Counted from the stretch's first letter, positions 656 to 59,556 are shown. The stretch: 64,000 nucleotides of DNA from an uncultured bacterium (GCA_963695335.1 OY968764.1:1280001-1344000), one strand, 5' to 3'. Numbers and translations: made by a program. Notes: generated by a model from the letters alone, not told the origin.

Positions 656-1660
656 ATGAAGCGCACACAACTCTTTTCCTGTTTACTTTTCACCGCAATT
701 ACAACTCACTGCATGGAGGACAAGCCACAAAAACAAGAACTTGCAAATCCTTGGAAAGCAATTGATTGCCAAGTCATTGAAAAAAGCCTCACAGACGACT
801 ATCATAACTATCTCAAAAACCGTTTGGAAGAATATAAAAAGGTTGATTTTACCCCTGAAAATATGATTCATCTGATATCTACAGGTATTTTTATAACAGG
901 AGATAAATACATAGGTCTTCCTTATAATGTTATCCGTGATGAAAACAATGATACTTTCCATAATATCGCAGTTAAACAACAAAATTTACCGGTCATTAAT
1001 TACTGTGTAAAAGGACATGGGTTTCATTGCATCACTCGTGATGACTTTGATCTATGTCTTGCAACATGCGTCAAACATCTTCACCCAGAGAAAACTGATG
1101 CAACCGAAAAAACAACAGCCTATGAAATTATTAAAACACTCTGCACAAAACAAGGACCTAATGCGTCTATTTTTACTTTACGCGAAAAATCTTGCAGAGA
1201 AAATCTTATCAAGCAACTCATCTTGCTCCAAATCAAACATAAAAAATATAAGAGTGATTTTGTGATTGAAGATGAACTTATTGCGCAACACCTGACATCA
1301 GGGGAAAATGATCAATCGCCTATTGTGCTAACAGATATGTATCAAACGGTTGCTAATAAAAAAGGAAATACATTATCTCATATAGTTGTAGAGTTACAAA
1401 ACCCAGATGAGCTGCATCAACTTATTACCAAAAACTATATATCACCTGCTATAAATAAAACAAATGATACCGTACTCGATATTGCATTGTGGCACTTCCA
1501 AGACTTTACTCATAACATATCTTCACTTGATGCGCATAAACCGCAAGCAGATCAATCACGATGCTGTTTATTTATGCTACTTAGCTATATTAAGTCAAAA
1601 CAGAACGGCATATTAGACAAAAGTCAGCAATGTTGCGATAAACATCCTATAGCATTATAA
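656..1660 (+). CDS. Secreted hypothetical protein, paralog family A (degenerate ankyrin-like)
   Basis: 334 aa ORF, AAAGGA RBS, signal peptide ending THC-ME, ankyrin-like NDTFHNIAV and GNTLSHIVV segments. Confidence 0.85.
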   Translation: MKRTQLFSCLLFTAITTHCMEDKPQKQELANPWKAIDCQVIEKSLTDDYHNYLKNRLEEYKKVDFTPENMIHLISTGIFITGDKYIGLPYNVIRDENNDTFHNIAVKQQNLPVINYCVKGHGFHCITRDDFDLCLATCVKHLHPEKTDATEKTTAYEIIKTLCTKQGPNASIFTLREKSCRENLIKQLILLQIKHKKYKSDFVIEDELIAQHLTSGENDQSPIVLTDMYQTVANKKGNTLSHIVVELQNPDELHQLITKNYISPAINKTNDTVLDIALWHFQDFTHNISSLDAHKPQADQSRCCLFMLLSYIKSKQNGILDKSQQCCDKHPIAL

Positions 1661-2303
1661 AACCAACAGCTTCCCATAAAAGAAACACAACAAAAAGGTA
1701 CTTCTGATGAAAAATACACAACTCTTTTTCTATTTACTTTTCATAACAATCACAACTCATTGCATGGAACCCAATCCTTGGGCAGCCATTGATTGCCACA
1801 AAATCGAACAAACCTTATTTACTGATTACCGTAATTATTGCGCTGGACAACTTGAAGAATACAAGCAAACTACTTTTACGCCGCAACATATGAAACATAT
1901 AGAAGATATGGCAATCACGTATACGGGATACAATCATTATAAATCAACTCTCTATGATGTGCGTGATAAAGAAGATAATTGTTTTCCACATATTGCAATT
2001 CAAAAATTTGATTTACCAACACTTACATGGCTTGTAAGACAAAGAATATATTATCCAAAAAACAAACAGGGCAAAGGGTTTATCGAAGTATGCATTGATC
2101 ATTTATCCCCCCACAACAATATTGACGCTGAAAAGAAACAAATCGCATATGCTATGCTCAACACTATTATAACAAATTACGGCAAGAGGTTAGGCATTTC
2201 GCTCAGAAAACCAATTGTAGAAAATCTTATTGCGCTACAAATCGAACACAGAAAACAACACAACAACAATGTTTTAGCTGACATTGTATTGACACCATTA
2301 CTA

Positions 2304-3153
2304 GGTTCTGTTGAGTTTTTGAAAAGATAAGTTTTGAAGTATGATAACACCGAAAAAGCAAAAACCAAATCACTAAAACGGTGCTATCATGAAAAAAGAG
2401 TATATCAGCGAAATGGCCTGGAGCAAAATTTTTAATTTTTTAAAACAGCAAAAAAACATTTATATAAAAGAAGAAAAGGACTGTAAAAAGTTTATAGAAG
2501 GGACATTTTGGATGGCAAGAACAGGAGCACAATGGAGAGAGTTGCCGGAAAAATATGGAAATTGGAATAGTGTGTTCAGCAGATTTAATGCTTGGTCAAA
2601 AAAACATATTTGGGAAAAATTACTCAGTTTTTGTGCAGAGGATCCCGATATGGAATATGTAATGATTGATGCCACGATAGTCCGCGCACATGCCTGTTCT
2701 GCTGGATATGATCAATTTAAAAATGAAGGACTGGGAAGAAGTAAAGGTGGTTTTACAAGTAAGATACATGCAACAGTAGATGCTTTAGGCAATCCTTTAA
2801 GATTTGTTATTACTCCTGGTCAGCGTAATGATATTACTCAGGCTGATATTTTATTAAAAGATATTTCTGAATCATATGTAATAGCGGATAAAGGATATGA
2901 TTCCACTGAATTACGTTCGAAATTAATAGAAAAAAATTGTGTTCCCGTTATTCCTCCAAGATCCAATCGTAAAGAACAATATCAATATGATGAACATCTA
3001 TATAAAGAGAGACATGCGATTGAATGCTTGTTTTCAAAGATAAAACACTTTAGAAGAGTGTTTGCTCGTTTTGATAAATCGGCACGAAATTTTTTATCTT
3101 TTCTTTCTTTTGTGGGAACTTGCATATGGTTACGATGAAAACTCAACAGAACC
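2304..3153 (+). mobile_element. IS5-family insertion sequence (850 bp)
   Basis: Perfect 16-bp TIRs GGTTCTGTTGAGTTTT (2304-2319) and AAAACTCAACAGAACC (3138-3153). TA duplication at 2302-2303 and 3154-3155 within a CTAG target. Confidence 0.95.
2389..3138 (+). CDS. IS5-family DDE transposase (IS427/IS1031-like)
   Basis: RTGAQWRELP, IDATIVRAH, GRSKGG.TSKIH, ADKGYD and YKERHAIE motifs in a single uninterrupted ORF. Confidence 0.95.
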   Translation: MKKEYISEMAWSKIFNFLKQQKNIYIKEEKDCKKFIEGTFWMARTGAQWRELPEKYGNWNSVFSRFNAWSKKHIWEKLLSFCAEDPDMEYVMIDATIVRAHACSAGYDQFKNEGLGRSKGGFTSKIHATVDALGNPLRFVITPGQRNDITQADILLKDISESYVIADKGYDSTELRSKLIEKNCVPVIPPRSNRKEQYQYDEHLYKERHAIECLFSKIKHFRRVFARFDKSARNFLSFLSFVGTCIWLR

Positions 3154-3605: not shown

Positions 3606-3663
3606 ACTTTTTTATCCTCTTTTTTAATAGATCTTCTCAAGTATCATTAAAAAGGGGGCGCCT

Positions 3664-4116
3664 ATGAAATATATCAGAGTATATACATCTTTCATGCTAT
3701 TTTTACTATCGTCATCTACAGGAATGCAAAATATACACTTTAAAGAGCAACTGAGTGAAATAGAAAAATTAATTGTCTTGCATAAAATGAAACATGCTAG
3801 TCATAAAATAGATTTTAATGCTGCACACATCTTTGATGCACCAATAATAACAAAAATTGAAAAAGATCGAACTGATGATTTTGCTACTTTGATTATGGAA
3901 ACTATCAAAGAGCAAGAAAAAGAACTGGGGTACGTACCAGAACAAATATCTGAAAAAATAGATGGGGTATGGCACCTTACCATACCCACCAATTATATCG
4001 GCAAGTACACACGTTATTATCATACAAAAGATTTTGCAGGGGAGTATATTGAACTGCATTCAACGTTTATCTATCAACCAGCCGTACTAGAAGTGCTTAA
4101 CAATTATTCCTCATAA
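3664..4116 (+). CDS. Secreted hypothetical protein
   Basis: 150 aa ORF with G-rich RBS and signal-like N-terminus ending STG-MQ. Confidence 0.7.
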   Translation: MKYIRVYTSFMLFLLSSSTGMQNIHFKEQLSEIEKLIVLHKMKHASHKIDFNAAHIFDAPIITKIEKDRTDDFATLIMETIKEQEKELGYVPEQISEKIDGVWHLTIPTNYIGKYTRYYHTKDFAGEYIELHSTFIYQPAVLEVLNNYSS

Positions 4117-4736: not shown

Positions 4737-5690
4737 ATGCATAAATATAATCTTCTCATTACCCTCACATCCCTTGTTACCGCATCCATACTAGCAATGG
4801 AACAAGAACAAAAAAACATACAACTTCAAAAAACAGAAAAATCTCGTTGTAAAATTTCTGAACTTCTAGAAAATCCTCGTACCCCAAAACGCCTTATAAT
4901 GGAAATTAACAATTTACTAGAGAACAAAAACTTTACTCTTGATGCTCATTCTGTTGATTCAAAAACGCATCCATTCGAGATAAAAGTTGCTTTTTATAAT
5001 GATAACATGGAACATGCATTAACGTATAAAATGCCACATGATTATCCATTTTATGCTCCTATTCTTTCATCTCTTGAAACGAGCAATACCATGCTTACAA
5101 CACAAGACTTGATCGCCATTAAAAAAAAATTTAATGATGATCTTAAACAAATCTGGAATCCCGCACGACGAATGACTGAAATAGTTGCGATGACTCATAA
5201 ACACATAAGTTCCTATGAAGATCAAAAAATAGCATCTCAACGAGTTGCTCAAGGTTATGAAAGAACGTTACCTCAGATAAAAGAAAAATATCAAACGACC
5301 AATGTCTATGTAAATAGCCAATATCCAGAATTTCAAGAAAAATTACATGGGCTTTGGATTAAAGAAATGCCAAGCGGATATTTTGTATTTCATGTCGAAT
5401 ATAATTACATAAATATAGCTTTTGAACCTAAGTACATAGGTGCAGAACCTCTATCATACCATGGATACTGTGCTGTGGGGTATCACGAGACACATAATAA
5501 CCAATTTCATATACACATAAGTGATACCAATGATTCAGGAAAAATAAATGCCTTTAAAATCTTTGTATACTCTGATCATATTTCAATCATATTTAACTCT
5601 CTACAACACGATTCAATCTTAAACGCCATCATATCTCAACTCAAAATGGATGATGTTATTGGAGAACGCATGGATTTAATAAAAATATAA
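4737..5690 (+). CDS. Secreted protein with ubiquitin-conjugating (E2/UBC/RWD)-like domain, catalytic Cys absent
   Basis: KRLIMEINNL, MPHDYPFYAP and WNPARRMTEIV align by eye with E2 motifs KRI.KEL, FPTDYPFKPP and WSPALTISKV. Start placed by RBS and by homology with the 5' end of 5774. Confidence 0.6.
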   Translation: MHKYNLLITLTSLVTASILAMEQEQKNIQLQKTEKSRCKISELLENPRTPKRLIMEINNLLENKNFTLDAHSVDSKTHPFEIKVAFYNDNMEHALTYKMPHDYPFYAPILSSLETSNTMLTTQDLIAIKKKFNDDLKQIWNPARRMTEIVAMTHKHISSYEDQKIASQRVAQGYERTLPQIKEKYQTTNVYVNSQYPEFQEKLHGLWIKEMPSGYFVFHVEYNYINIAFEPKYIGAEPLSYHGYCAVGYHETHNNQFHIHISDTNDSGKINAFKIFVYSDHISIIFNSLQHDSILNAIISQLKMDDVIGERMDLIKI

Positions 5691-5773: not shown

Positions 5774-6928
5774 ATGCATACATATCATCTTCTCATTATC
5801 CTCACATCAGTTGTTACTACATCTACTATGACAATGGAAGACTACCAACTTGATTTAGCTCATATAAAAAGGCTACAACGCAAATATATTGGAAAACATG
5901 GTTGGACAGTAAAAACAGACAAGAACGGAAAATACTCTGTATGCATAGATTGTAGTGATGGTCAAGGTGAGTTCTATGCAAAAACACAAGTTATTCGCGA
6001 ATTCAAAGAATATCAAAACACTCAATTCTTACTACAATTAGATACTACAAACAAATCCATAATCAGCGATGATAATGATGTGCACATTATTGACATGCAA
6101 ACTGGCGAGGCTCAAGAAACTCTATCTGGTCATACAGATCTTGTCCATTGTTGCGCACATACCGATTACCGCCACATACTCGTTACAGGCTCCAATGATA
6201 CAACAATTAAATTGTGGAATATAAAAAATAATCAATGCATGCGAACATTGCATAGCCATAAACACTATGTAACAAATGTTGCTTCAAAAGGAAATACTAT
6301 CACTTCAACAGACAGAGAGCCTTGCTTAAAATTATGGGATATGTCATCTGCCAAAACATTTCATACAAAACTCTTTATTGATAAAAGTAATGAGCATCAT
6401 ATGCCTACGAGCCTCATGATGCATAACAACCTTATATATGTAGGACTCACAAAGGGGATAATCACAATAATTGATCCACGATCAACAATATCAGTCTATG
6501 AAGGAACTACCCACGCAGGCCCTGTTGAATGCCTTACTCCATGCACAAATAATAATGATGTATTCTATTCTGGATCATCAGATCAAACGGTCAAACAATG
6601 GGATCTTCGTCGTCCTAATGCTCCCACCAAAATATTACATAAAAAAAATAATCCTGATAACCAAAAATATAGTATTCAAAATGTCTATGAAGATCATAAT
6701 GGTAAAAAAATATTTTCATCGGACAAAAATAGAATCTATATATGGGATGTTTCCACAGAAGAACCAAAAATAGTAACCACAAAAAAATTTGATCATGCTA
6801 TTTACCCCAACTGCATGCGCATGAATAATGATGAAACTGAGCTGTATATTGGCACAAAAGAAGGTATAAAAACCCTCACTCCCGCACTCAGCTTTGAACA
6901 ACTTGCTGCATTAGCGGAACAAAAATAA
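5774..6928 (+). CDS. Secreted WD40-repeat protein
   Basis: GHTDLVHC..TGSNDTTIKLWN, HAGPVECL..SGSSDQTVKQWD, KLWD and IYIWD repeats. Confidence 0.9.
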   Translation: MHTYHLLIILTSVVTTSTMTMEDYQLDLAHIKRLQRKYIGKHGWTVKTDKNGKYSVCIDCSDGQGEFYAKTQVIREFKEYQNTQFLLQLDTTNKSIISDDNDVHIIDMQTGEAQETLSGHTDLVHCCAHTDYRHILVTGSNDTTIKLWNIKNNQCMRTLHSHKHYVTNVASKGNTITSTDREPCLKLWDMSSAKTFHTKLFIDKSNEHHMPTSLMMHNNLIYVGLTKGIITIIDPRSTISVYEGTTHAGPVECLTPCTNNNDVFYSGSSDQTVKQWDLRRPNAPTKILHKKNNPDNQKYSIQNVYEDHNGKKIFSSDKNRIYIWDVSTEEPKIVTTKKFDHAIYPNCMRMNNDETELYIGTKEGIKTLTPALSFEQLAALAEQK

Positions 6929-7010: not shown

Positions 7011-7415
7011 ATGAAAAACCATTGTCTTATAATAGCAATCACTCTTTCCATGGGAATATTTTCACACAACTTCGGCTCAGAAACATCAAGCATAACAGGT
7101 TCATCGCTTATCAGCTGGACCCAAACCGGCTTATATAACATCTACCAAGGAATGATCAGCTCTGTTACTGGATTAATCAACATACCATATTCAATCATGA
7201 ATACCGTTTCGGCATGGAGCGAGCAAAAACAAATATTTATTACAACCGCAGCAGTCGCAACACTCTTGGCTGTATACCAAAAAGAAGTTATTAAAAAATG
7301 GCTTAATGACATGGTAGAACGGCTTACTACCCCAAAAGAAACCCGACGACTATTACGAGACGTCAACGTTGAAGAAATTCCTTGGGATGAAAATTACGAG
7401 AAAAGAGTTAAGTGA
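7011..7415 (+). CDS. Hypothetical membrane/secreted protein
   Basis: 134 aa ORF with AAGGA RBS, signal-like N-terminus and a second hydrophobic segment. Confidence 0.65.
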   Translation: MKNHCLIIAITLSMGIFSHNFGSETSSITGSSLISWTQTGLYNIYQGMISSVTGLINIPYSIMNTVSAWSEQKQIFITTAAVATLLAVYQKEVIKKWLNDMVERLTTPKETRRLLRDVNVEEIPWDENYEKRVK

Positions 7416-9504: not shown

Positions 9505-9752
9505 CAATAAAAAATTGAGCCAAATAGGCCATATTCATAACCTATTTGGCTCAAAATTAGCGATCCCCCTAAAAACAGATTAGTAAGACTAGACACATCT
9601 TGCATAGATAAAAGCAAATCTTTAAAATTCTTTTGATTAACACGACTCAATCGCTATTAAATAAAAAATTCTGCAATTTGGAAGCAATAATTCCAAATTG
9701 CAGAAAATATAGGTTTGAAGCGATTCAATCACACTATTCTTTGTTCTTATTG
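9505..9752. repeat. Intergenic duplicated segment (copy at about 18976-19173)
   Basis: Shares the AGCCAA.TAGG..CCTATTTGGCT repeat, ACACGACTCAAT, the TTCTGCAATTTG...CAAATTGCAGAA hairpin and CGATTCAATC.CACTATTCT with the second copy. Confidence 0.8.
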
Positions 9753-10396
9753 TATTCTTCAAAAAGAGCACGCTGCTTGATATAACAATCTTTTTTATGC
9801 CGCAAAAGCCCCGCTATTTTCTTACATTGCTCAGCGGTGATCTTGTCATGAGCCCACAACAATTTTCCTTCTTCTTCCTTGCTCTGCAATTTTTGTAAAC
9901 CTGCGTTTACAGTCATTACAAAATGATGCTCCTGATTAGCATCAGAGAAAAGTTCAACTCTTTTTTTCTGAGCATCATACAGGTCAAGATACTTACAACA
10001 ACGTGGATTGCTACATGGGATTTTTTTAATATATGCAAAAGAACACTCATCACTACCAATTTCTGCAATATCATAATAAAGTTTTTCAGCCCTAAAAGCT
10101 TTTGGGTCACGTACATACTTATACGTTTTATGCACACCTTTACATGCACCACCAATAATATAACATCCAGCAACAGTTGCAACTTGCCCTAGAGCATAAC
10201 CGAGAGGCAAAATGAACATTGCTGCAGCAACAATTTCACCAGCCTCATCAAAATTTCTTTTTTGTATCATAGGACTTGTTACATTGACCCGATGTACAGA
10301 TTTTGGCATCCGCTTGGTAACCAACTGCATTGCAGATACTTCTGATGCAATGATCATTGATACGCACAATCCAAAAAAAATAGTCTTACCATCCAT
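9734..10396 (-). CDS. Secreted hypothetical protein, paralog family B
   Basis: Signal ending VSA-MQ, CSNPRCC motif, homologous to 11264..12226. Confidence 0.8.
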   Translation of the reverse strand: MDGKTIFFGLCVSMIIASEVSAMQLVTKRMPKSVHRVNVTSPMIQKRNFDEAGEIVAAAMFILPLGYALGQVATVAGCYIIGGACKGVHKTYKYVRDPKAFRAEKLYYDIAEIGSDECSFAYIKKIPCSNPRCCKYLDLYDAQKKRVELFSDANQEHHFVMTVNAGLQKLQSKEEEGKLLWAHDKITAEQCKKIAGLLRHKKDCYIKQRALFEEYNKNKE

Positions 10397-10401: not shown

Positions 10402-11229
10402 TTACTCTCTTGTTTGATTCTTGCCACAGTGCAATAACTTATACTCTTCATCGATACGGCTTAATTTATATGACACAGTACGATTGCCTACCAGAGCGTT
10501 TCTATAATCTATTTTTGCCTGCTCATCAACTATCGCATCTTTATATTCTTTCTCATTTTCATACCATTCACTAATATCATCTCGGATCTCACGAATTTGT
10601 TTGATTTTAGATGTCATTTTAAAATGATCTTCTTTCCAAGTATCAAAGCTATCTTCTAAAATAACTTGTGCCTGATTAAACAAACATGCATTTATATTAG
10701 AAATCATCGAATATAATACTAAACGCTTTGACCTATCTGCATTACAAAATTCATTCAATATAACTCTATACTGTATTAAATCTATATATAAGTCTTTAAT
10801 ATCTTCCAAATATGCAACTCTACCTTTTTTTTCAACATTCTCCAAAAATCTCTGCCTTATTGCATGTGATCTTCGCGCTGCTTGTATATTTTTTTGCATT
10901 CCTAACAACAATGCTCCACCGCAACATATAGGTGAATTACATGCATCTGCTTTGAGAATTCGCTCAGCAAGAAAATTTTCACATTTCTTTGCACCTAATT
11001 CTTTAATGTCTTCATACATTTCTGCTAAATCTTTTGACGTATATAGTGCATCTGAATAAAAACTAACACTATCTTTACCTACTCGAATATCAAAAGGCCT
11101 ACTATTATTTCTTTGTTGAATTTTACAAAAAACATTCGACATGCGCTTAGTTTTGACTATCATCGCATGTGTCACCGACACAAACATCACTGATGCACTC
11201 AATACAAAAAATATATTCTTACATTTCAT
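10402..11229 (-). CDS. Secreted hypothetical protein, paralog family B (divergent)
   Basis: AAGGAG RBS, signal ending THA-MI, ELGAKKC...CNSPICC motif. Confidence 0.8.
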   Translation of the reverse strand: MKCKNIFFVLSASVMFVSVTHAMIVKTKRMSNVFCKIQQRNNSRPFDIRVGKDSVSFYSDALYTSKDLAEMYEDIKELGAKKCENFLAERILKADACNSPICCGGALLLGMQKNIQAARRSHAIRQRFLENVEKKGRVAYLEDIKDLYIDLIQYRVILNEFCNADRSKRLVLYSMISNINACLFNQAQVILEDSFDTWKEDHFKMTSKIKQIREIRDDISEWYENEKEYKDAIVDEQAKIDYRNALVGNRTVSYKLSRIDEEYKLLHCGKNQTRE

Positions 11230-11263: not shown

Positions 11264-12226
11264 TTATTCAATACTACTATGGCTACTTGAAGAACTATCC
11301 GAAGAAAAACTACTATCCCTATATGATTGCGAAGAATAACTCTCCATATTTGACATATACGATGAACTTGATGAACTATCAGAATGGGCAGTTGCACTAT
11401 CACAAATTTGCTTTGCCACATATGCATGCATCATCAACATATTTAAATCGCGCGCAGGATCGTCATTTCTACGGCCATCGTCAGCTTTATCTTGTTGCCG
11501 TGGTGTATGTTGTTGTAGATTACACTCTTGATTATGTTGCTGCTGATTATCATATCGCTGCGTCTTTGGGACCATCAAAGTAATAGATTTAATCTTCTCA
11601 CAATATTCTTTATCGCTCTGTTTTTTTGCTTCAGCACTATCAAAAAATTCATCAGAAAGAGCTATCTGTTTTATATGACAATCTTTTTTATGCTCAAGAA
11701 GACCCATAATTTTTTGATATCCTTCAATATAAATTTTATCTTGAGCAAGTAATTGCTTTGCTTCTTCTTCTTTATTATGCAATTTTTGTAAACCATCTTT
11801 TACCCGTACTAAAAAATCACGTCCCTGATTAATGTCACAAAAAAGTTCAGGTCTTTTTTCATAAGCAAAGAGTGGGTGAAGATTCTTACAACATTGTGGG
11901 TTTTTACACACCTCTTTTTTGATATAAACATTGGAACATCTCTCGCTACCAATGCCTGCAACTTCATTATGTAACCTGTTAGCTGTAATTATCATCTTAG
12001 TAATTGGGCAAGTATTTAGAGCTTCTTCTATACAACAAATAGCCACAGGAACACCAACAAACCATATTAATGCTCCAAAACTTCCCCTTTTTTGCACCAG
12101 GGGACTCATGCTATTCACCCGATACATAGTTTTTGGTATTCGTCTTCTAACCAATTGCATTGCAGATATTTCTGATGCAATCATCATTGATGCACACAAA
12201 CCAAAAAATATATTCTTACCATTCAT
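11264..12226 (-). CDS. Secreted hypothetical protein, paralog family B, Ser-rich C-terminal tail
   Basis: AAGGAG RBS before MNGKNIFF, CKNPQCC motif, poly-Ser tail. Confidence 0.8.
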   Translation of the reverse strand: MNGKNIFFGLCASMMIASEISAMQLVRRRIPKTMYRVNSMSPLVQKRGSFGALIWFVGVPVAICCIEEALNTCPITKMIITANRLHNEVAGIGSERCSNVYIKKEVCKNPQCCKNLHPLFAYEKRPELFCDINQGRDFLVRVKDGLQKLHNKEEEAKQLLAQDKIYIEGYQKIMGLLEHKKDCHIKQIALSDEFFDSAEAKKQSDKEYCEKIKSITLMVPKTQRYDNQQQHNQECNLQQHTPRQQDKADDGRRNDDPARDLNMLMMHAYVAKQICDSATAHSDSSSSSSYMSNMESYSSQSYRDSSFSSDSSSSSHSSIE

Positions 12227-13480: not shown

Positions 13481-14596
13481 TTATTCACAACGCCCAGCTT
13501 CATGGGCATGATCTCTATCCCACTGGTTAATATACCCTTCCACCATTTGTCGCCGATCAGCAGGAATAGGATGTAGAGGATAAATAATTTCTTTTATTAT
13601 CCTACTATTGAGTACTCTCTCTAGCCTACTATCTGATATTTTATTTTTCTTATAATAGTCTGTTTCATGTTCCTTCCAATATTTTGCAAACTCTTCAAGC
13701 TCTAATCGCGATACAGCATGTTCACACGCAAATGTATCCGCAGGTGCCTCAAACCAATGTTTCGATAAAAATCCACCTAAAACAGCATTGGCCAATGCTT
13801 TTGGTACAATGGCACCAATAGCAGAACCAGATCGCAACATAGTCTTTAAAAATGTTTTTGGTTGCGGTTGAATATTATATAATTTTCTCAATAGTTTAGT
13901 TGCTCCAAAAGATAATGCCTCAACTCCAAGAGGGATTGTTGTGAGAGCATACACATATTTATTACTATCCTCATGAACAATATGACCAAATTCATGATTT
14001 ACAATCATTGATTCTCGAGCGATTTTTGCTTTACATTGAGCAACATTTTGTTTCTCTACATCAATCTGTGATTCTGCAGATTTAATTAATTGGTTATCAG
14101 CACGCGACAAAAGAAAAGATTTAAATATTCCCCTTTTTTCTTTTTGTTGCTTGGCATATTCAAATTCTTTTAAAGCTTGATGAAGTCTTTCTTCTGCTAG
14201 CGGCTGATTGACTAAGGCTTCATGCAATTGATCGCAAACTTCTGAAGAAACTGATACCACACCAATATGTTCATTAGCACGAGCATGAGCATGACGTGAA
14301 TTCTTATGAGTCACTAAGAATATAGGTTTAGAATGAGGCATATTTGCTTGTTTTTTTTGACCTTCAAACCAATCATTAAGAGCTGGTTGCGTGGGCAACT
14401 CTTCATCAAAATCCAATACATTTACTTTTTCTAATGCTTTTTTATAGTTCTTAGAATGATACAATCCAAGAGTTGGCAACGTTGTTACGCCAACAAAACG
14501 AGCTAATTTAAAGACTTTTCCACCCATGGCAAAAGATGGGATCATAAACGTAAAAAGCAGCATTAGAGCTGCATATTGTAAATAACTTTTATTCAT
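13481..14596 (-). CDS. M48-like zinc metalloprotease
   Basis: HEFGH (HExxH), E..AD third-ligand motif and HP....R motif typical of M48 (HtpX/Oma1/Ste24). Confidence 0.8.
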   Translation of the reverse strand: MNKSYLQYAALMLLFTFMIPSFAMGGKVFKLARFVGVTTLPTLGLYHSKNYKKALEKVNVLDFDEELPTQPALNDWFEGQKKQANMPHSKPIFLVTHKNSRHAHARANEHIGVVSVSSEVCDQLHEALVNQPLAEERLHQALKEFEYAKQQKEKRGIFKSFLLSRADNQLIKSAESQIDVEKQNVAQCKAKIARESMIVNHEFGHIVHEDSNKYVYALTTIPLGVEALSFGATKLLRKLYNIQPQPKTFLKTMLRSGSAIGAIVPKALANAVLGGFLSKHWFEAPADTFACEHAVSRLELEEFAKYWKEHETDYYKKNKISDSRLERVLNSRIIKEIIYPLHPIPADRRQMVEGYINQWDRDHAHEAGRCE

Positions 14597-14754: not shown

Positions 14755-16029
14755 TTACTTTTGTGTCTCAATAAAAGGATTTACTCCACCATGCTTCCTT
14801 ATTATTGCCTTATTTATTAAAGACAAAATTTCTGCATCTGATGTAATTGAAGGTTGCGGAAAACGTGTTGCTGCAGATTGTATTGCTGCTGCATACCCCT
14901 CTGGATAAATAATCTTTATAGCATTATTACGTGGCGTTACACCAAATTTATTGACAAACTCTGGGTCTGCTCCTGCATCAAGAAGTTCTTTAATCATTAA
15001 TTTATTTTTTGTATTAATTGCAGCCGAAAGAGCTGTAGTTCCTTTCTTATTCTGTTGATCTATTGCGATATAAGGATTATTTAAAAGACATTTGACTGCT
15101 TCCATGTGGCCCTCATCCACAGCAAATAATAATGCTGTATCTCCATACATAGGAGTATCTTTATTAACATCTGCTCCATACTCAAGAAGTATAGTAATCA
15201 TAGGGCAGTTATTGTCTTGTGCTGCATGCATAAGAGCTGTTAGTCCACCATTGCTTGGCTGATCTATCTTAATTCGAGGGTTACTTAAAAGACATTTAAC
15301 TGCTTCCATATGTCCTTGAGCAACAGCAAGTGCTAATACTGGGATTCCAGACTCTAAAACAATTTTATTAATATCTGCTCCATGCTCAAGAAGTATAGTA
15401 ATCATAGGACAATTGTTGTAAAACACTGCAAGCGAAAGAGCTGTGCCCCCATCAGTACCTACTTGATCTATCTTAATTTGCGGATTACTTAAAAGACATT
15501 TAACCGCTTCCATATGTCCTTCAGCAACAGCAAACCGCAATGCTGTCGTTCCTTTCGTATTACCTTTATTGATATCTGCCCCATGCTCAAGCAATATATT
15601 AATAACAGGACAATGATTTTCTTGTGCCGCAAACATAAGGGCTGTACTCCCAAAACTATCTTGTTGGTCTACCTTAATGTGAGGATTATCTAAAAGACAT
15701 TGAACTGCTTCTATATGCCCCTTTTGAGCAGCAAATATTAATGCTGTCCTCCCATCAGAATCAATTACGTTAACATCAATTCCATCATCAAGAAGTTTTG
15801 TAATTGTAGAGCAATCATTTTCCTTTGCTGCGTTCAAGAAGGCATCACTTTGTCCTCCTTGAATATATTTTTTATATGCTAAATAACCACCCCCAATAGC
15901 CGCTCCGATAAGTGCAATCAATCCTATTTTTTTTGCGGTACTTGATTCTTCTTCCATGCCATAATTATGATATGGTGTAATTATCAGCAAAAATGCAGTG
16001 ATCATGCTCAATTTTTTTGTACAATCCAT
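14755..16029 (-). CDS. Ankyrin-repeat protein
   Basis: About 9 repeats of G.TAL..AA..G/N...V..LL..GADIN. Signal ending NYG-ME, followed by a TM segment. Confidence 0.95.
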   Translation of the reverse strand: MDCTKKLSMITAFLLIITPYHNYGMEEESSTAKKIGLIALIGAAIGGGYLAYKKYIQGGQSDAFLNAAKENDCSTITKLLDDGIDVNVIDSDGRTALIFAAQKGHIEAVQCLLDNPHIKVDQQDSFGSTALMFAAQENHCPVINILLEHGADINKGNTKGTTALRFAVAEGHMEAVKCLLSNPQIKIDQVGTDGGTALSLAVFYNNCPMITILLEHGADINKIVLESGIPVLALAVAQGHMEAVKCLLSNPRIKIDQPSNGGLTALMHAAQDNNCPMITILLEYGADVNKDTPMYGDTALLFAVDEGHMEAVKCLLNNPYIAIDQQNKKGTTALSAAINTKNKLMIKELLDAGADPEFVNKFGVTPRNNAIKIIYPEGYAAAIQSAATRFPQPSITSDAEILSLINKAIIRKHGGVNPFIETQK

Positions 16030-16226: not shown

Positions 16227-17408
16227 TTATAATTGGCAGCCATGACTTTTAACTAAATTATACATAATAAAGCGCATAACTCCCGCAGGGATGTTCTGCA
16301 TAGTTCCATAAAAATCAATGGTGTAATTTTTTAAAAACCAATATTTAAAAGCAAACGAGCGTTGCTTATCAATAGTATCAACCATCTCTTTGAGCCAACC
16401 TTTTGGCTCTCCTTGTTCCACATCGAATGCGGTTTTTTCCACACCATCATCTTCATGATACCAAAATGGATATTCCATTCGTTTAATGCTAGCACGTGTA
16501 ACACTATCACTATTTACAAAATACTGTAACAACAACCATGCATATTCTTGATCATTATTGCGTGCTGCAATCATAAGGGGAGAAAACTTTTCAAACGACT
16601 GAGTACAATCTGGATCGGCACCATATGCAAGGAGCGATAGTGCTATAATACAATAATGCACTTTTCTATTTCCATGTTTTCCAAAGCTCCAACAGCGTTT
16701 TTTGGCGATATCCAACAACAAATTATTGTTGATTTTATTTTTGCAATCAGAGCCAACGGCAAGAAGCTGCTCTATTTTTTCAAAATCCATTGTTTTAAAA
16801 GCCAAAGAAAGTAACGTATGTGGACTGTACTTTTCCACCAGTTGTTTAAATTTCATTCCCGTTCTTTTTGGTCTGGTAGTATCTCTGCTTTTATATTTTG
16901 CCATTTTATGACTTAACCAACCATGGCTTACTTGATAGCTCGCATTCAAATACCAAGAATCTTGCAAATCTTCTGGTGTAAACTGCCTATCTGCATCGGT
17001 CACAATATCAAACAACTGATCCATTTTTTGCCGTATAGTAAAAAAAACGCCGCCTTTTGAATTAAGGCAGCGAGCAACTGTTTCATCACACATCCAACGC
17101 TGATGTTGTGCAATACTCTTAATTATTTTTTGGGCACTCTTTTCTTTAGAAAATCTTTCAGAAAAAAACCTATTAACACATGTCACTGTCTGAAGATCTC
17201 TACCAAAGTGGTGTACCACACTATCATTGCAATGATTGTACTTTCTACCACCTGATTGATCTACAATAAAATGATTTTCAGCATACAGCCAGCTCAGAAT
17301 CTTTACCAACACTTGATCTCTAACTTTTTCTTCTTGCTGTATCACCAAATCCATACTATGCAATGCAGTAGTAATAATAAACAATGCAAAAACTATTTTT
17401 TTATGCAT
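16227..17408 (-). CDS. Secreted ankyrin-containing protein with possible F-box-like N-terminus
   Basis: LLAYGADPD..SPLMIAARNN ankyrin repeat. DQVLVKILSWL...DLQTVTCVNRFF resembles a split F-box. Confidence 0.65.
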   Translation of the reverse strand: MHKKIVFALFIITTALHSMDLVIQQEEKVRDQVLVKILSWLYAENHFIVDQSGGRKYNHCNDSVVHHFGRDLQTVTCVNRFFSERFSKEKSAQKIIKSIAQHQRWMCDETVARCLNSKGGVFFTIRQKMDQLFDIVTDADRQFTPEDLQDSWYLNASYQVSHGWLSHKMAKYKSRDTTRPKRTGMKFKQLVEKYSPHTLLSLAFKTMDFEKIEQLLAVGSDCKNKINNNLLLDIAKKRCWSFGKHGNRKVHYCIIALSLLAYGADPDCTQSFEKFSPLMIAARNNDQEYAWLLLQYFVNSDSVTRASIKRMEYPFWYHEDDGVEKTAFDVEQGEPKGWLKEMVDTIDKQRSFAFKYWFLKNYTIDFYGTMQNIPAGVMRFIMYNLVKSHGCQL

Positions 17409-19180: not shown

Positions 19181-19741
19181 TTACACATCAGGACTATCAT
19201 CATTCAAAAAGAACTGAATATTAGATGGTGCGCCAAGCTCCAAAGCTACTGCCAACGGTCTATCTTTATACATCAGCGCATCAGGATTAATCATCATTGC
19301 TTCAATATCAGCTTTTTTGTCTAAAATAATATCTTTACCCACAATTTTATTATTCGGTAATTTTACGCCATCTCCTGGAGTGATAAAGTACCCCTTTTTG
19401 GTTGAAACAACTTGATATGCAATGTGCTGCATAGTTGGATTTTCTTGCACATATGGCCCTTGCCATTTTTCTGGATGTGCTAAATTCATCGGCCCTACTT
19501 CTGATCCGGTGAATTTTTCTACATTCAAAAAATTAATAGAATGTTTCTGATTATCAAAATCAATAATCACACAATTTTTATGAATACGGTGAAATACATC
19601 TCGCAATTCTACTACTGCATCTGCCATCATCATCCCTGAATCATCTTTTGCACGATACACGGTATTTATCAATGTCATGCCAATAAAAAATGCAGTTGCT
19701 ATAACAACTGCTGGTAATAAATACTTTTGAATTTTTTTCAT
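19181..19741 (-). CDS. Pseudopilin (GspG/PulG)-like protein
   Basis: N-terminal hydrophobic helix and a KWQGPYV motif resembling GspG W.GPYL. No clear prepilin G|FTLIE site. Confidence 0.5.
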   Translation of the reverse strand: MKKIQKYLLPAVVIATAFFIGMTLINTVYRAKDDSGMMMADAVVELRDVFHRIHKNCVIIDFDNQKHSINFLNVEKFTGSEVGPMNLAHPEKWQGPYVQENPTMQHIAYQVVSTKKGYFITPGDGVKLPNNKIVGKDIILDKKADIEAMMINPDALMYKDRPLAVALELGAPSNIQFFLNDDSPDV

Positions 19742-22972: not shown

Positions 22973-23803
22973 ATGCGATATATAATTCTTCTCTTAAGTT
23001 TATATACAACACCGTTGTATGGTATGAAATCTTTAATTGAAAAAGAGCCACGCTATTGTTTTAAAAACTTAACGGTCTTCAGCTATGATGGCTGGGAAGG
23101 TAATGCTATTTTCATCGCAAAAAACGCCGCATTAGTTCATTCCAATACACCAATAATAAACAACACAACCAATGACGTTAAAAAACCAGTAAAACATCCT
23201 GAGATAAAAAACCTCTTTTTTAGAGAGCCGCAACAGAATACCTATGATCTTGTTACTGTATATAATCCCTACATGCTCAATAAAAAAAACATACTCATTC
23301 ATCTCAAAGCAATTCATAATTATCTTGCACCATCGGGCAAATTCTGTTTTTTAATAAGAACAAAAGCAAACACTCTCTCTGTTCCTGAACAAGCATTTGC
23401 AACTATCTTCCCCCACGAGTATTTATCTACTCAACGCGCAAAAGAAGAACAAATAAAAGCAAACTATTTTACTGATGATGAACTCAAGGAACTTATCTGG
23501 TCAAATGGATATAATATCAATGTCTACGAAAATAAAACCTATGAAACCATTTTACCCGATATACACGATTATCAAGAAGCACTTGCAGCAACATTTATTC
23601 ACAATATACGCCATACCAATGTATCAAAAACAATAACACAACAGCTCACTGAGCAATTTATACAACTTGTTATGCAACAAAGTAAAAGAAATCGTCGCAA
23701 CCAAATAATAGAATCTTGGAATTTTACAAAAATAATCTTATGCAAAACAGATAAACTCAGGCCTCCTGTATTTTTGAACAATTCACTATTATCAACGCAC
23801 TAA
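22973..23803 (+). CDS. Secreted SAM-dependent methyltransferase-like protein (degenerate)
   Basis: TYDLVT and IHNYLAPSGKF motifs, weak motif I, in tandem with two paralogs. Confidence 0.55.
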   Translation: MRYIILLLSLYTTPLYGMKSLIEKEPRYCFKNLTVFSYDGWEGNAIFIAKNAALVHSNTPIINNTTNDVKKPVKHPEIKNLFFREPQQNTYDLVTVYNPYMLNKKNILIHLKAIHNYLAPSGKFCFLIRTKANTLSVPEQAFATIFPHEYLSTQRAKEEQIKANYFTDDELKELIWSNGYNINVYENKTYETILPDIHDYQEALAATFIHNIRHTNVSKTITQQLTEQFIQLVMQQSKRNRRNQIIESWNFTKIILCKTDKLRPPVFLNNSLLSTH

Positions 23804-23888: not shown

Positions 23889-24761
23889 ATGAAAAAATAT
23901 GTTTTACTTGCAGCATTCATAATCAGCGCACTTAATGGAATGGATAATCAACAACCTAAGAACTCATCTATTGTTTCACAACTTTTAGAACATTATAATA
24001 TTCCCATTCAAAATCGTGCCATTTTTCATATTGGATGTACCACAGGAAAAAGATCTGTCGAACTTGCACAAAAAGCATCTCGCGTTCATGTATTCGATCA
24101 AAATAAAAATTTTATTGATACTGCGCAAAACACATACCAAGATATCAAAAACATTACGTTTGAACAATGTAATCCCATGAATTTTAATTTTCCAAGACAA
24201 TGCGATGTGGCAATCATTGATTACACCACAATAAACGATTATGCGGAGATTAATGAACACAAACAAGAACTATTCCAATGTATGCATCAACATTTATTAC
24301 AAAATGGTGAAATATTGCTTTCTATTACAACAACTGAAAACACACCACATCCAAATATTGATGCTGCCAAAGAAATGGCTTCAGTTCTACAAGCATACAT
24401 ACCTGGTACAACAGAAGAAGAAATTATCAATCTTATGACACCATCGTACCCTTCTTTGCAAGACCTACTCACTGCACTCGAAGAAACTGGCTTTGAGATT
24501 ATTACTCATAAAGAACAAATTATTACTAAAGAAATGAACGAAAAAAAATTCTTGAACAGCTGTGAATATATCATTACCCAAAACCCAATATCTGAAAAAA
24601 TACAAGATCCTAATCTTAGAAATGACCTCACTCATCACTTTATACATTCTTATCTAAAACATTTAACCCAGTTTGTACATATACACAATTTGCAAAAAAG
24701 GCATGCAAATACTTACTTAGAACCACTAATTACTACGATCATTCATGCGCGTAAAAAATAA
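23889..24761 (+). CDS. Secreted class I SAM-dependent methyltransferase-like protein
   Basis: IFHIGCTTG motif I, VFD, CDVAI, LLQNGEI and LEETGFEI motifs. Confidence 0.75.
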   Translation: MKKYVLLAAFIISALNGMDNQQPKNSSIVSQLLEHYNIPIQNRAIFHIGCTTGKRSVELAQKASRVHVFDQNKNFIDTAQNTYQDIKNITFEQCNPMNFNFPRQCDVAIIDYTTINDYAEINEHKQELFQCMHQHLLQNGEILLSITTTENTPHPNIDAAKEMASVLQAYIPGTTEEEIINLMTPSYPSLQDLLTALEETGFEIITHKEQIITKEMNEKKFLNSCEYIITQNPISEKIQDPNLRNDLTHHFIHSYLKHLTQFVHIHNLQKRHANTYLEPLITTIIHARKK

Positions 24762-24773: not shown

Positions 24774-25706
24774 GTGAAAAAGTATCTTATTGCTCTGTGC
24801 TTCATCAACAGCCTCAACTGCATGGAAAAGGAATCTTCTCTTAAAAAAACTGAAATATCCAAAAAAATAAGCAAACGTAAAGATTATGATGCGTACGCTT
24901 ATGACAACATCAAAATGAATATTGAAGTAGAAAATACTGTTTTACAATGGTTTCAAGATTGCAACATTGATACCACTGAAAAAACGATTCTGAACATGGA
25001 TTGCAACACAGGTAATATTAATGCAAGACTTGCAGAAACAGCAAAATATGTTCATGGAATTTCCGAAAGTAAAAATTTTATTAATTTTGTACTCAACAAA
25101 CACACAAATGCTATACAGGATGGAAAACTCTCTTTTGAATATGTCAAAACAAAAAATTTTGAATCAAACCCTCAGCAATATGACATAGCAATCACATGTT
25201 CTATGAATAACTGGAAAACTCATAGTGAAAATATCTTACGTAAAGTTAACAAAGGCCTCAAACCAAATGGAGATTTTTTCGCAGTTCTTTTAACAAGTGA
25301 TAATCCTGAAATTTACAGCTATGTTGCTGCTCAAAAATTTATAAAAAAACATATTTCTTCTTATCTTAATTTAGCCAAATTAACAGGCTGGTCGCCTTTA
25401 TCTAAAGAAGCCCTCATAAGTCTCTTTACAACAACAGGCTTTGAAATTATTACCCTCGAAAATCAATCTTGTAAAAGAACAATGACCAAAGATGATATAC
25501 GTGAAAGCGCTAAATATGTGGGTAAAAGCACCCCATTGGCAAAATACATACCAGATAAAAAACTTGAATCAGGCTTAAATAAGTATGCTGATCTGTGTAT
25601 AGAAGAATTACAATGTGTTGATAAAGATAAAGATGAATATACATTTGAGGTATTACTCACTGTTGTTCATGCACGCAAAACTCAAGAAATTGATAATAAA
25701 AAATAA
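24774..25706 (+). CDS. Secreted class I SAM-dependent methyltransferase-like protein
   Basis: ILNMDCNTG, YDIA, LKPNGDF and TGFEIITL motifs. Paralog of 23889..24761. Confidence 0.75.
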   Translation: MKKYLIALCFINSLNCMEKESSLKKTEISKKISKRKDYDAYAYDNIKMNIEVENTVLQWFQDCNIDTTEKTILNMDCNTGNINARLAETAKYVHGISESKNFINFVLNKHTNAIQDGKLSFEYVKTKNFESNPQQYDIAITCSMNNWKTHSENILRKVNKGLKPNGDFFAVLLTSDNPEIYSYVAAQKFIKKHISSYLNLAKLTGWSPLSKEALISLFTTTGFEIITLENQSCKRTMTKDDIRESAKYVGKSTPLAKYIPDKKLESGLNKYADLCIEELQCVDKDKDEYTFEVLLTVVHARKTQEIDNKK

Positions 25707-52798: not shown

Positions 52799-53584
52799 AT
52801 GAAAATACATGCATTGGTCGTATTACTTTTATCTGCTTCTCTTGCCAGCAATTGCATGGAAAAAGAAAACTCAACTGCCACGGTTATTAGATATGATGAT
52901 TCCGGCATATCAATAACACGGCATAGAAAAGAAAATGTAATAGGCTTGATGCCAGCCTTTCAAGATACAAAGTTGACCGCCAAAGCCCAAGAAAGAGCAT
53001 CTCTAGTACCACAAGTTCCATTTTCTATCAATGAAAAAACAATGGAAGAATTACAGACTATCAACCGTAAAATTACAGAATTAGACCTAAGACTTAACGC
53101 TGCAAAAGCAAACTCAAGTAATGATCCATTTACGCCAATGGAAATCCAAGCAAAACTTAAAAAACGATACGAAAAGCTGGGTAATACTTTAAATCTTTTA
53201 AACAACGAAATAATGCAAAACTCAACAGATGTACTAGATAATGTGACAAAAGAGATAACATCTCAAGAATCAGTTCTAGTAAACAAATTACGAGATAACC
53301 AAATAACAAAAGATGAATATAATTCACAGTTAAAACAAATTAAAGATTCCTTCCGCAAATCACAAGTAAATACTACAATAATCAATGAATTCATATTGGC
53401 GCATAAAAAAGTACAAGCGATCCAACAATTTGCAGAAATTGGATTAACAAAAAATAAATCTGACAAATTATTTATAGCTATGGAGACAAAATATCGAATA
53501 CAAGCTGGTCATTTAGCAGCTTTAATTAATAAGTTTGTAGAAACATTAGAAGAGTTACCACAAGAACAAACATCAGACAAATAA
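52799..53584 (+). CDS. Secreted coiled-coil hypothetical protein
   Basis: AAGGA RBS before MKIHAL, signal ending SNC-ME, heptad-rich body. Confidence 0.75.
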   Translation: MKIHALVVLLLSASLASNCMEKENSTATVIRYDDSGISITRHRKENVIGLMPAFQDTKLTAKAQERASLVPQVPFSINEKTMEELQTINRKITELDLRLNAAKANSSNDPFTPMEIQAKLKKRYEKLGNTLNLLNNEIMQNSTDVLDNVTKEITSQESVLVNKLRDNQITKDEYNSQLKQIKDSFRKSQVNTTIINEFILAHKKVQAIQQFAEIGLTKNKSDKLFIAMETKYRIQAGHLAALINKFVETLEELPQEQTSDK

Positions 53585-57478: not shown

Positions 57479-57669
57479 AATGAGAAATCCTGTATTAATG
57501 AATTATTCATTCACCCGTACAATAGCGGATTTCCAATTTGAAAAACAACCCTTTAATATATCCTCCTTCGCATAAAGCTATGGAGGCAGGTCAGAAGAGA
57601 AACATAAAAAAAGAGGCTGTTTAAAAGCCTCTTTGTAGAAATTACTGAATTTACGGGTAATTTTTAAAT

Positions 57670-59556
57670 TTATTTTTGAACTTCCTGCAATTGTTTTACA
57701 CGTTGCCGAGCAAGCACTTCTTCTACCAATTGCTGTTTTTCTTCTTTACTTTTTTGTCTTTCTTTTTGTTTTTCATATTTCTGTGCAATTACATTTTCCA
57801 TTTTCTTAATCTGTTCAGAAGAAATTTCTCTTCTTATTTCTCTCGACCGCATCTCTAAAATTCTGTCATTATAATCTTTTTCCTCATCAGAATCATGTTT
57901 AACCAATACCAATGCCTTTTCTATTGGATTTGAGTACACCCTTTCTATCTCTGCCATAAATAGTGTATTACCTTTAAAAATTGGTTTATCATTATTGTCT
58001 TTAAAATAAACTTTTGTACCATAATCTTTAGTGCCAAAAATCAGAATATCCTTATAACCATCAATTTCATCAATAAAAAAGCATTTGGATCCTCCCGATG
58101 TTCCCGTTAACATAAACCATTGCAATATTCCAACAAAACTATGCGTTGCTGATGATATTTTTTTTATCTTATGAAAAATACGTTCTGGTTCATTTGGAAC
58201 AGACCCTGATGACATCATAGAAAATATACCTTGTAAGTTTTTAGAATTAATTGTCAACTCAAATGGTATTTCATCGGTATATAATAAAATTATTTCTGGA
58301 TCCTTTTTAAAAAATGAAACTATGTTGAGTGGTTTCTGAGGATCCTGAGTTTGAGCTAAGATAGAACCTATTGAAACAACTTTTTTATCAACTATATCAA
58401 CGGAAAGCCATTCAATTCCAGGTAATTTAATTTGTGGTATCTGAAATAACTTACTTACATAAGAGAAAAGATGTTTAAAATTACCTTCTTTTATTTTTTG
58501 CGCTATTTCAAAGGGAGAATCAAAATGAAGGATGTATGTAAGTTCTTCCCGTTCATGCCATTTATGCATATCAATATCAGGCGCTTGATCTGTTCTAACA
58601 ACATCATTAATTCCATTCACTATAATGGGAAATGAATACTGAGCTTTAACTTGTGATTTCATATTTCCAAAAATTTTATCTGTATTCGCTCCTACGGCAA
58701 AACAAGATACGTACATCAATAATTGTGTTTTTATTTTATGTTCTAAAAAATGTAAAAACTGCTGAAACCCATTTAAGCTGAGACCTACAACTCTAGTGCC
58801 AATACGCCCATGTCCTTCTATATACATAACCCATTCAGGACTCTGTTGCTTTGCGATTCTATAGTCCGAGTTTGTACAAAAAATAGAATCCATTGCTTCA
58901 ACAAAATAATCAGCAAACTTAAAATCTTTGGGTCTTTCAATCTGATCAATGGTAATAGTTTCCATATGATTAACTTTAAAACCTAATTTTAATTCAGTCT
59001 CAGATGGCAACTCTACATTTTTATTATAGTCAACTTGTTTACCATTAATGTGTAATGTTTCTAAATAAACCTTAGGGATTAAAAGAACCAATGAATCATT
59101 AATCTTTTTTATAATCCATGGTTCTTGTTCAAAACATATTCTCGATAGAATAATACTTTCTTTTTCTGCAAATTCCTTAAATTTACCAGAAGAATAATCC
59201 GACCAGCTATCATTTAATAAATCCTTAATTGGTCTTATATCCTTCTTTGCTGCCTCATGTACATTATACAATAATGATGTAGATAGAATTATTGGATAAT
59301 TTTTTAGACAAAGTCCTGTCAAAACCATCCCTCCTATACCACCGAGCTCTTTTTCCGAATCATCTAAAAATATGAGTACGTTCCTTGTTTCAGCTTCTTT
59401 TGTTTCTATTAAATCTTGCTTTTCAAAAAATTGAATCTGCAATTTTTCTGTTTCAGATGTATGCATAGAAAAAAGATTTGTTGCAAAAAAAGTCCCTAAC
59501 AAACCACTCAAATAAAACAATTGAGTTATTCTTAAACTATTTTTTAAGTTTTTCAT
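57670..59556 (-). CDS. Secreted clan CD-like cysteine protease, copy 2
   Basis: WVMYIEGHGR...LLMYVSCFAVG. Shares IFLDDSE, PQIKLPGIEW and FFKKDPE with copy 1. Confidence 0.6.
   Translation of the reverse strand: MKNLKNSLRITQLFYLSGLLGTFFATNLFSMHTSETEKLQIQFFEKQDLIETKEAETRNVLIFLDDSEKELGGIGGMVLTGLCLKNYPIILSTSLLYNVHEAAKKDIRPIKDLLNDSWSDYSSGKFKEFAEKESIILSRICFEQEPWIIKKINDSLVLLIPKVYLETLHINGKQVDYNKNVELPSETELKLGFKVNHMETITIDQIERPKDFKFADYFVEAMDSIFCTNSDYRIAKQQSPEWVMYIEGHGRIGTRVVGLSLNGFQQFLHFLEHKIKTQLLMYVSCFAVGANTDKIFGNMKSQVKAQYSFPIIVNGINDVVRTDQAPDIDMHKWHEREELTYILHFDSPFEIAQKIKEGNFKHLFSYVSKLFQIPQIKLPGIEWLSVDIVDKKVVSIGSILAQTQDPQKPLNIVSFFKKDPEIILLYTDEIPFELTINSKNLQGIFSMMSSGSVPNEPERIFHKIKKISSATHSFVGILQWFMLTGTSGGSKCFFIDEIDGYKDILIFGTKDYGTKVYFKDNNDKPIFKGNTLFMAEIERVYSNPIEKALVLVKHDSDEEKDYNDRILEMRSREIRREISSEQIKKMENVIAQKYEKQKERQKSKEEKQQLVEEVLARQRVKQLQEVQK

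Follow-up and report, generated by a model that had tools for sequence, protein, structure and literature searches.

Methionine directly follows the predicted signal peptide of many eukaryote-like exported proteins in a Dependentiae genome

Residues that follow a signal-peptide cleavage site can decide where a protein goes, as in the lipoprotein +2 rule and the Bacteroidetes lipoprotein export signal, both of which concern lipidated Cys proteins processed by signal peptidase II. Here we describe a Met at the first position (+1) after the predicted Sec signal peptide, a feature that a first-pass annotation had pointed out on about 20 proteins encoded in a 64,000-nucleotide stretch of DNA from an uncultured bacterium (GCA_963695335.1 OY968764.1:1280001-1344000, 35% GC; hereafter the window) and that recurs throughout the 1.37-Mb, one-contig genome, G000, to which the window belongs (G000:1280001-1344000). 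Relatives of the G000 nucleotide transporter, at 84-88% identity, are named Ca. Babeliales, and we therefore place the genome in the Babeliales (Dependentiae/Babelota). Dependentiae are a phylum of intracellular parasites of protists. In contrast to the lipoprotein rules, a Cys in the G000 proteins, when present, stands at -1 and not in a lipobox; as it is preceded by H, N, F or Q in the HC|M, NC|M and FC|M cases, a lipoprotein reading of C|M was rejected.

Among proteins cut by signal peptidase I (SPase I), the Bacteroidetes Q-rule likewise describes a lineage-specific +1 residue exposed on a large share of Sec substrates, with a protective role proposed in the available text (PMC5837995); there a bacterial enzyme cyclises the residue, a Gln, which is found on most substrates, periplasmic ones included, and is said not to serve as a signal for sorting. 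G000 differs in having Met (or Ser), selectively on host-type cargo and with the envelope nearly free of it (1/41), and Gln occupies the best site in 13-17 of 561 signal-peptide proteins. In Plasmodium PEXEL export, host-bound proteins acquire an x-E/Q/D terminus by proteolysis and the first residue matters, according to the available text of bioRxiv 2023.07.12.548774; that system belongs to a eukaryotic parasite and uses an RxL motif, plasmepsin V and PTEX, all of them inapplicable to G000, so that the likeness is one of analogy and not of homology. Of the 231 G000 proteins that we assign to the Met class (see below), 153 have E, D or Q at +2 and hence resemble a mature PEXEL terminus, whereas the Met-anchored profile has L, I, T, V or S at -3, where PEXEL has Arg, and A, G, S, C or T (about 96%) at -1, where PEXEL has Leu. 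Judged by these features, the +1 Met would be a variant of post-cleavage N-terminal codes that lacks defining features of both the Q-rule and PEXEL.

Signal-peptide proteins that reach the vacuole lumen or the host cytosol are known from Chlamydia (CPAF, HtrA, CT311 and CT795), where the available text of PMC6717882 gives a handful of substrates and reports no N-terminal rule, compared with over 200 proteins in G000, where neither a type III nor a type IV system was found. As a parallel, one of the three G000 HtrA paralogues belongs to the Met class; two HtrA/DegP paralogues are adjacent (G000 1008054 and 1009857), one with A|QE and the other with C|MQ. Other Dependentiae resemble G000 in the available texts: many of their ankyrin proteins have signal peptides (79/126; 78%; PMC4378268, PMC6561590, PMC4776705), type II is the only secretion system of Babela (PMC4378268), two gspD genes are present in TM6 genomes, along with a degenerate outer membrane (PMC4776705), and vesicles bud early in infection (PMC6561590). 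The word 'methionine' is absent from the main texts of these three papers, which describe no +1 rule, and a word search of PMC12172432 gave no match. The rule is unreported in the open literature searched (main texts, no supplements or subscription papers), although a passing mention is possible.

Met at the first mature position across the genome

Gene calling with a dicodon model gave 1269 genes, 561 of which were classed as signal-peptide-like; this class has at least 18 false members and is incomplete, with 33 more small-residue-then-Met candidates, most of them seemingly genuine, among the remaining genes. All cleavage sites are predictions of an in-house model and not of SignalP. To avoid circularity, the two blind models used took positions -13 to -1 as their only input, the +1 residue being unseen; the first (seed) is an untrained generic matrix and the second was trained on 200 signal peptides without Met in the region. 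The seed matrix placed Met at +1 in 178 of the 561 proteins versus 0-31 at thirteen other offsets, and the Met-free-trained matrix in 174 versus 3-52, while Met makes up 1.8% of mature residues (binomial p about 1e-105 against 4%). The +1 Met is thus enriched far above background. A refined rule, which accepts Met at any site of posterior at least 0.1 with a matrix refitted on Met sites and hence not blind, assigned 231 of 561 proteins to the Met class, and the same rule applied to ten other residues gave 15-57. About four in ten exported proteins start with Met after predicted signal peptide removal.

The 231 proteins span 154 of 405 sequence families, 120 of the 154 being singletons. Their signal peptides, whose lengths peak at 18-23 residues, show the hallmarks of Sec/SPase I substrates in the in-house model (basic n-region, hydrophobic h-region, small residues at -1 and -3, 17-25 residues). 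The +2 residue is Glu in 131, Lys in 22 and Asp in 14, and 162 of the 231 have D, E, N or Q there, giving NatB-type starts. Residues that permit Met removal by aminopeptidase (A/C/G/P/S/T/V) occupy +2 in 20 of the 231 as compared to 193 of 642 cytosolic proteins at the corresponding position. Among 24 confident Ser starts, 14 are Ser-Glu. Basic clusters lie within the first 40 mature residues of 43/231 Met-class versus 3/41 envelope proteins. N-myristoylation was rejected, with Gly at +2 in only 2/231, and no shared C-terminal signal was found in the Met class beyond five CaaX ends. A second class of sequence after the signal peptide, K-[QVI]-[MVL]-[GKR]-[KR] with a P/T/Q-rich tract behind it, occurs on about 13 otherwise unrelated G000 proteins (15 pattern matches genome-wide, two seemingly spurious; an example is window 55673-57478, minus strand). 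Because a +1 Lys is destabilising, these proteins likely have a different destination, such as the surface or the vacuole membrane.

Cargo and conservation

We compared the Met class with domain content by a Pfam scan of 533 of the 534 signal-peptide proteins outside the window (up to their first 320 residues) and of 32 window proteins. An envelope set of 41 proteins (BamA-type, secretins, TolB, OmpA, PBP, binding proteins, DegP, collagens and others) was fixed before Met status was seen. By the refined rule the Met class takes in 38 of the 47 ankyrin/WD40 proteins and 1 of the 41 envelope proteins (p 5e-15), and the blind best sites gave 25 versus 2 and 29 versus 0 for the same sets, bearing out the observation of the first-pass annotation that the Met goes with eukaryote-like cargo; 16 of the 41 envelope proteins do have a Met within residues 15-35. 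Among confidently called ankyrin/WD40 proteins, 37 of 38 start with M, S or T, using a model that takes in Met-class +2 to +5 but not +1, and of four ankyrin-like genes omitted by the classifier, three show a signal peptide and Met upstream. Secreted hydrolases and toxin-like proteins, which are typical type II cargo, are Met-class in only 2/26, in a set drawn up, like that of the cytosol-type enzymes below, after the ankyrin/WD40-versus-envelope result was known. CaaX ends, which need host prenyltransferases, terminate 5/231 Met-class proteins (G000 7578, 363594, 922336, 1085030 and 1185172, one of them an ankyrin protein) versus 0/330 other signal-peptide and 1/642 cytosolic proteins (p 0.012 and 0.0013). 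Whatever its reader may be, the Met is very likely a mark of host-directed cargo and under selection.

Dependentiae have no type III/IV system and hundreds of host-type proteins, and effectors among their signal-peptide ORFans were hitherto indistinguishable; a one-residue mark that separates 38/47 repeat proteins from 1/41 envelope proteins could serve as an effector predictor, and it is found on 183 of the 389 signal-peptide proteins without a Pfam family. The mark also opens a single-residue approach to the entry of Sec/type II cargo into the host cytosol and its survival there, a matter unsettled even in Chlamydia. Signal peptide plus Met was also seen on a second thymidylate kinase, the sole GalU, the sole OMP decarboxylase and an HIT protein (G000 543580, 1126799, 229487 and 1146904), which on sequence would be candidate metabolic effectors; in a GalU homologue (P0214) a Ser-rich linker comes after the signal peptide. 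At G000 840389-844618 an exported GNAT lies between two exported PP2C phosphatases, for which plant PP2Cs are the best outside matches.

Orthologues show purifying selection on the +1 residue. In 28 methyltransferase homologues of 40-79% identity (one fragment left out), +1 is Met in 28/28, while positions -1 to -8 vary freely, the linker changes in length and internal Met columns drift to I, L or V. More distant exported methyltransferases start with E, N, Q or G, and the rule is therefore not universal for the family. In 26 PP2C homologues +1 is Met in 17, Ser in 9 and nothing else, +2 is Glu in all 26, and internal Mets are replaced mostly by L, I or V; in the PP2C tree, whose base lacks resolution, Met and Ser rows interleave and a supported Ser clade contains one Met row. 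Since Met to Ser is not a conservative change, the constraint, as read from these alignments, is on the kind of N-terminus exposed.

We sampled 20-100 kb from each of 14 other Babeliae genomes, about half of them picked for ankyrin density, and the blind matrix gave +1 Met in 34, Ser in 30 and Ala in 24 of 235, several counts being inflated by paralogues and related genomes not being independent. Met is common in G028 (7/23), G031 (7/15), G064 (7/18) and G057 (7/30, from a single paralogue family whose site is ambiguous) and rare in G030 (0/26), G023 (1/38), G020 (0/11) and G068 (0/11). The Met rule is patchy across Babeliae, Ser and Ala being the other common +1 residues, and on these predicted sites a Met-only code does not hold, as orthologues and other Babeliae can have Ser (and Ala) instead. 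Among free-living bacteria, the blind matrix found +1 Met in 1/59. The nucleotide transporter is present in 51/401 Alphaproteobacteria, and 40 kb from each of 20 carriers gave +1 Ser in 21, Leu in 18, Ala in 14, Glu in 12 and Met in 6 of 129. Convergence on Met in these symbionts was rejected, 6/129 not being significant and their ankyrin and leucine-rich repeat proteins having mixed starts (K, A, H, S, E, N, L, M). Their signal-peptide ORFans (L225-L264) often start with Ser or Ala (35/129) and sometimes with MD, MN or MT, a weak hint of convergence. An ankyrin query against named genomes returned no match, and a plasmid search returned no symbiont records among the 50 matches listed.

What the exposed terminus might do

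The +1 Met probably gives proteins that work in the host a host-like start that protects or routes them. On the route that we infer, they would be ordinary Sec substrates cut by SPase I, as the -1/-3 residues and the single lepB of G000 suggest (lepB is present in 31/31 genomes), would leave the cell by a type II-like secretin system or in vesicles, and would act in the host cytosol, to which their domains and CaaX ends point. The machinery for the two-step export proposed in the first-pass annotation is present: beside lepB, G000 encodes two secretins, T2SSC-PDZ (GspC), a PilM-like protein, a T2SSE ATPase, two T2SSF platform proteins and five N-methyl pilins, the two long secretins standing in tandem around the PilM-like and GspC-PDZ genes (G000 319659-328147). 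Secretins occur in 61/61 Babeliae searched, low-Met genomes included, with two or three matches each. Because no TolC, type III, IV or VI marker was found in G000 (94% complete), the type II-like system, the only outer-membrane route found, is the likely route for Met-class proteins, judging by gene content.

Because signal peptidase and not the ribosome makes the N-terminus, the bacterium would have to encode one that the host tolerates. According to the available text of PMC7458402, the residues R, K, H, W, Y, F, L, I, D, E, N and Q are destabilising in the eukaryotic Arg/N-degron pathway, a set that takes in D, E, Q, K and N, the residues usual at +1 in bacteria, and Met is clipped before small residues. 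The encoded start would be Met, in most cases before Glu, and Ser-Glu or Ala-Glu would be acceptable in its stead; such starts would resemble those of normal eukaryotic cytosolic proteins, lie outside the Arg/N-degron set and, in the case of Met-Glu, escape Met aminopeptidase, and they would match substrates of NatB (ME) or NatA (SE, AE), following the specificities in the available text of PMC8358657. We favour this reading, in which a eukaryote-like N-terminus keeps the protein out of host N-degron turnover, at a probability of about 0.5, because it explains why the mark is selective for cargo, why Met and Ser exchange, why small residues are rare at +2 and why lineages differ. If it is true, host N-degron rules shape bacterial signal-peptide design.

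Several observations weigh against avoidance of N-degron turnover. First, Met is followed by R, K, L or I in 41/231, starts that can be targets of UBR ligases (PMC7458402, available text), and G064 has ML, MV and MI starts. Second, NatA-E act co-translationally according to the available text of PMC8358657, so that acetylation of delivered proteins is uncertain, and the excess of Glu over Asp at +2 (131 versus 14) goes beyond what NatB alone explains. Third, 9 of 47 ankyrin/WD40 proteins lack +1 Met by the rule, and cytosol-type enzymes with a signal peptide are Met-class in only 7/33 (about four more carry Met one to five residues downstream); among the exceptions are four AAA ATPases, three GNATs and two kinases that seemingly begin with a different residue, in some cases a destabilising one (H, K, Q, D). 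Fourth, no Met rule was detected in the 20 sampled alphaproteobacterial symbionts (6/129 versus 1/59 in free-living bacteria, p 0.44).

Because the enzymes with destabilising starts, the 41 Met-R/K/L/I proteins and the Glu-over-Asp bias would suit a reader of x-E, we also entertain, tentatively, a sorting tag, in which a bacterial or vacuolar export component reads an [M/S/A]-E mature terminus and so selects host-bound periplasmic cargo; the two readings are compatible and both can be true. Candidate readers are a secretin or the GspC PDZ domain, vesicle loading and a vacuole-membrane translocon. In PP2C the +2 Glu (26/26) is more conserved than +1, +4 is Glu in 80 of the 231 Met-class proteins, the motif is common to 154 unrelated families, as a modular tag would allow, and the tandem secretins and PDZ-bearing GspC of G000, as well as the K-[QVI]-[MVL]-[GKR]-[KR] class on unrelated proteins, point the same way; the first mature residue decides Plasmodium export in the available text of bioRxiv 2023.07.12.548774. 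On the other hand, all 61 Babeliae have secretins while Met use ranges from 0/26 to 7/15 per genome, likely type II hydrolase cargo is largely without Met (2/26 with it), +2 is a residue other than Glu in 100/231 and no specific reader candidate was found. Type II cargo is, moreover, generally recognised by its fold and not by a linear tag. A wider version, on which we would stake still less, is a general effector route in which SPase exposes an address, [M/S/A]-E or the second address K-Q/V-M-x-K, that a type II-derived machine might read; the same route may bring hundreds of folded proteins into the host cytosol as a bacterial counterpart of PEXEL/PTEX, the address being a host-compatible N-terminus too.

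It is improbable that a signal-peptide-Met-Glu cassette simply spread, or simply suits this peptidase, with no role after cleavage. Neighbouring unrelated genes do have near-identical signal peptides (ankyrin and WD40 genes, genome 680-685 kb), Met use is lineage-specific, and acidic early mature regions favour Sec export. However, signal peptide identity of at least 60% was found in only 12 cross-family pairs among the 231, +1 Met is invariant where -1 to -8 are free to vary, and envelope proteins, cut by the same peptidase, avoid Met (1/41).

Quite unlikely is a vestigial start codon, whereby a signal peptide was added before a captured cytosolic gene and the former initiator Met was left behind, as signal-less methyltransferase homologues that begin with Met near the same place might suggest. 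In the exported second copy of thymidylate kinase the signal peptide is followed by MEPEK and then by the Met that matches the start of the housekeeping copy, and in GalU the new Met-Glu stands four residues upstream of where many homologues begin, so that the old start Met is retained at +6 and +5, respectively, behind a new +1 Met-Glu. Moreover, Glu is residue 2 in 36/642 cytosolic proteins versus +2 in 75/154 Met-class families, and the Met keeps its place at the cleavage site even where the domain linker differs in length. The double-Met cases largely refute this reading, which may explain the origin of the Met in some families but not its retention.

The internal start codon that the first-pass annotation offered as an alternative, giving a cytoplasmic isoform, is hardly credible, as a ribosome-binding motif lies upstream of 165/231 first ATGs but 0/231 +1 ATGs (2.3 expected from synonymous shuffles), there is no exchange for GTG or TTG, the replacement residue in PP2C is Ser and never Val or Leu, and thymidylate kinase has a separate signal-less copy, even if GalU and OMP decarboxylase, single-copy yet signal-peptide-bearing, might for that reason need a cytoplasmic form. 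A Kozak-like mRNA signal was likewise rejected, -1 Ser codons having no strong purine preference (AGY 18, TCN 25) and T standing at -3 in 58/231.

Genes of the window

All 20 proteins named in the first-pass annotation carry the motif described for them, with the Met at residue 17-31 (| marks the proposed cleavage site; ATG positions are those of the Met codon):

656..1660, plus: exported ORFan, 334 aa, THC|ME, +1 ATG 713-715
1707..2330, plus: paralogue of 656, 207 aa, THC|ME, +1 ATG 1764-1766
3664..4116, plus: exported ORFan, 150 aa, STG|MQ, +1 ATG 3724-3726
4737..5690, plus: exported ORFan, 317 aa, ILA|ME, +1 ATG 4797-4799
5774..6928, plus: WD40 protein, 384 aa, TST|MT or TMT|ME, residue-21 ATG 5834-5836
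9734..10396, minus: exported ORFan, 220 aa, VSA|MQ, ATG 10328-10330
10402..11229, minus: exported ORFan, 275 aa, THA|MI, ATG 11161-11163
11264..12226, minus: exported ORFan, 320 aa, ISA|MQ, ATG 12158-12160
13481..14596, minus: exported ORFan, 371 aa, SFA|MG, ATG 14525-14527
14755..16029, minus: ankyrin protein, 424 aa, NYG|ME, ATG 15955-15957
16227..17408, minus: ankyrin protein (weak match), 393 aa, LHS|MD, ATG 17352-17354
22973..23803, plus: exported ORFan, 276 aa, LYG|MK, ATG 23024-23026
23889..24761, plus: SAM methyltransferase, 290 aa, LNG|MD, ATG 23940-23942
24774..25706, plus: SAM methyltransferase, 310 aa, GTG start, LNC|ME, ATG 24822-24824
26158..27936, minus: 592 aa, weak Skp1_POZ match below cut-off, VFS|MK, ATG 27865-27867
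27969..28916, minus: ankyrin protein, 315 aa, IHT|ME, ATG 28854-28856
29184..29858, minus: 224 aa, no Pfam family, ankyrin-like by Atlas features, ISA|ME, ATG 29799-29801
31620..32315, minus: paralogue of 29184, 231 aa, MHA|MK, ATG 32256-32258
52799..53584, plus: exported ORFan, 261 aa, SNC|ME, ATG 52856-52858
57670..59556, minus: exported ORFan, 628 aa, 30-residue signal, LFS|MH, ATG 59464-59466

Other signal-peptide proteins of the window lack the +1 Met:

7011..7415, plus: Ser-Glu variant, NFG|SE
33067..33873, minus: Ser-Glu variant, IIA|SE
59706..61373, minus: GMC oxidoreductase with signal peptide, LHA|EH; negative control

Cleavage directly before the Met, as the annotation had assumed, was predicted for 14/20 by the seed matrix, 15/20 by the Met-free-trained matrix and 16/20 by either, the remaining sites being placed elsewhere: the best blind site of 9734, 11264 and 52799 lies earlier than the Met, and 5774 has Mets at residues 19 and 21, of which the trained model chooses 19. 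The proteins cited as counterexamples (7531, 12794, 33067 and 59706) indeed have no +1 Met, and 33067 is probably of the same class as the Met proteins, with Ser replacing Met. The cargo labels fared unevenly. Pfam supports WD40 (5774) and ankyrin (14755, 16227 and 27969), as well as both methyltransferases (23889 and 24774), whereas the Skp1 label (26158) rests on a Skp1_POZ match below cut-off (E 0.0014), the F-box label (29184 and 31620) finds no Pfam family at E<=0.01, and no E2-like match occurs among the 32 window proteins scanned against Pfam; Atlas features place 29184 near ankyrin clusters (0.93).

For the GTG-started gene at 24774, a gene caller takes the +1 ATG (24822) as the start instead. 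Gene callers can pick the second Met in this manner and so hide the signal peptide, as did the caller used here for 28/231. The product of 19181-19741 (minus) scores as Met-class with FIG|MT and may be a membrane anchor. Between 37255 and 48548 pnp, rpoC and rpoB are each broken into two to four open reading frames, most likely by assembly frameshifts, and 2389-3138 encodes an IS5-like transposase with relatives in Babeliales, Methylococcaceae and Alphaproteobacteria.

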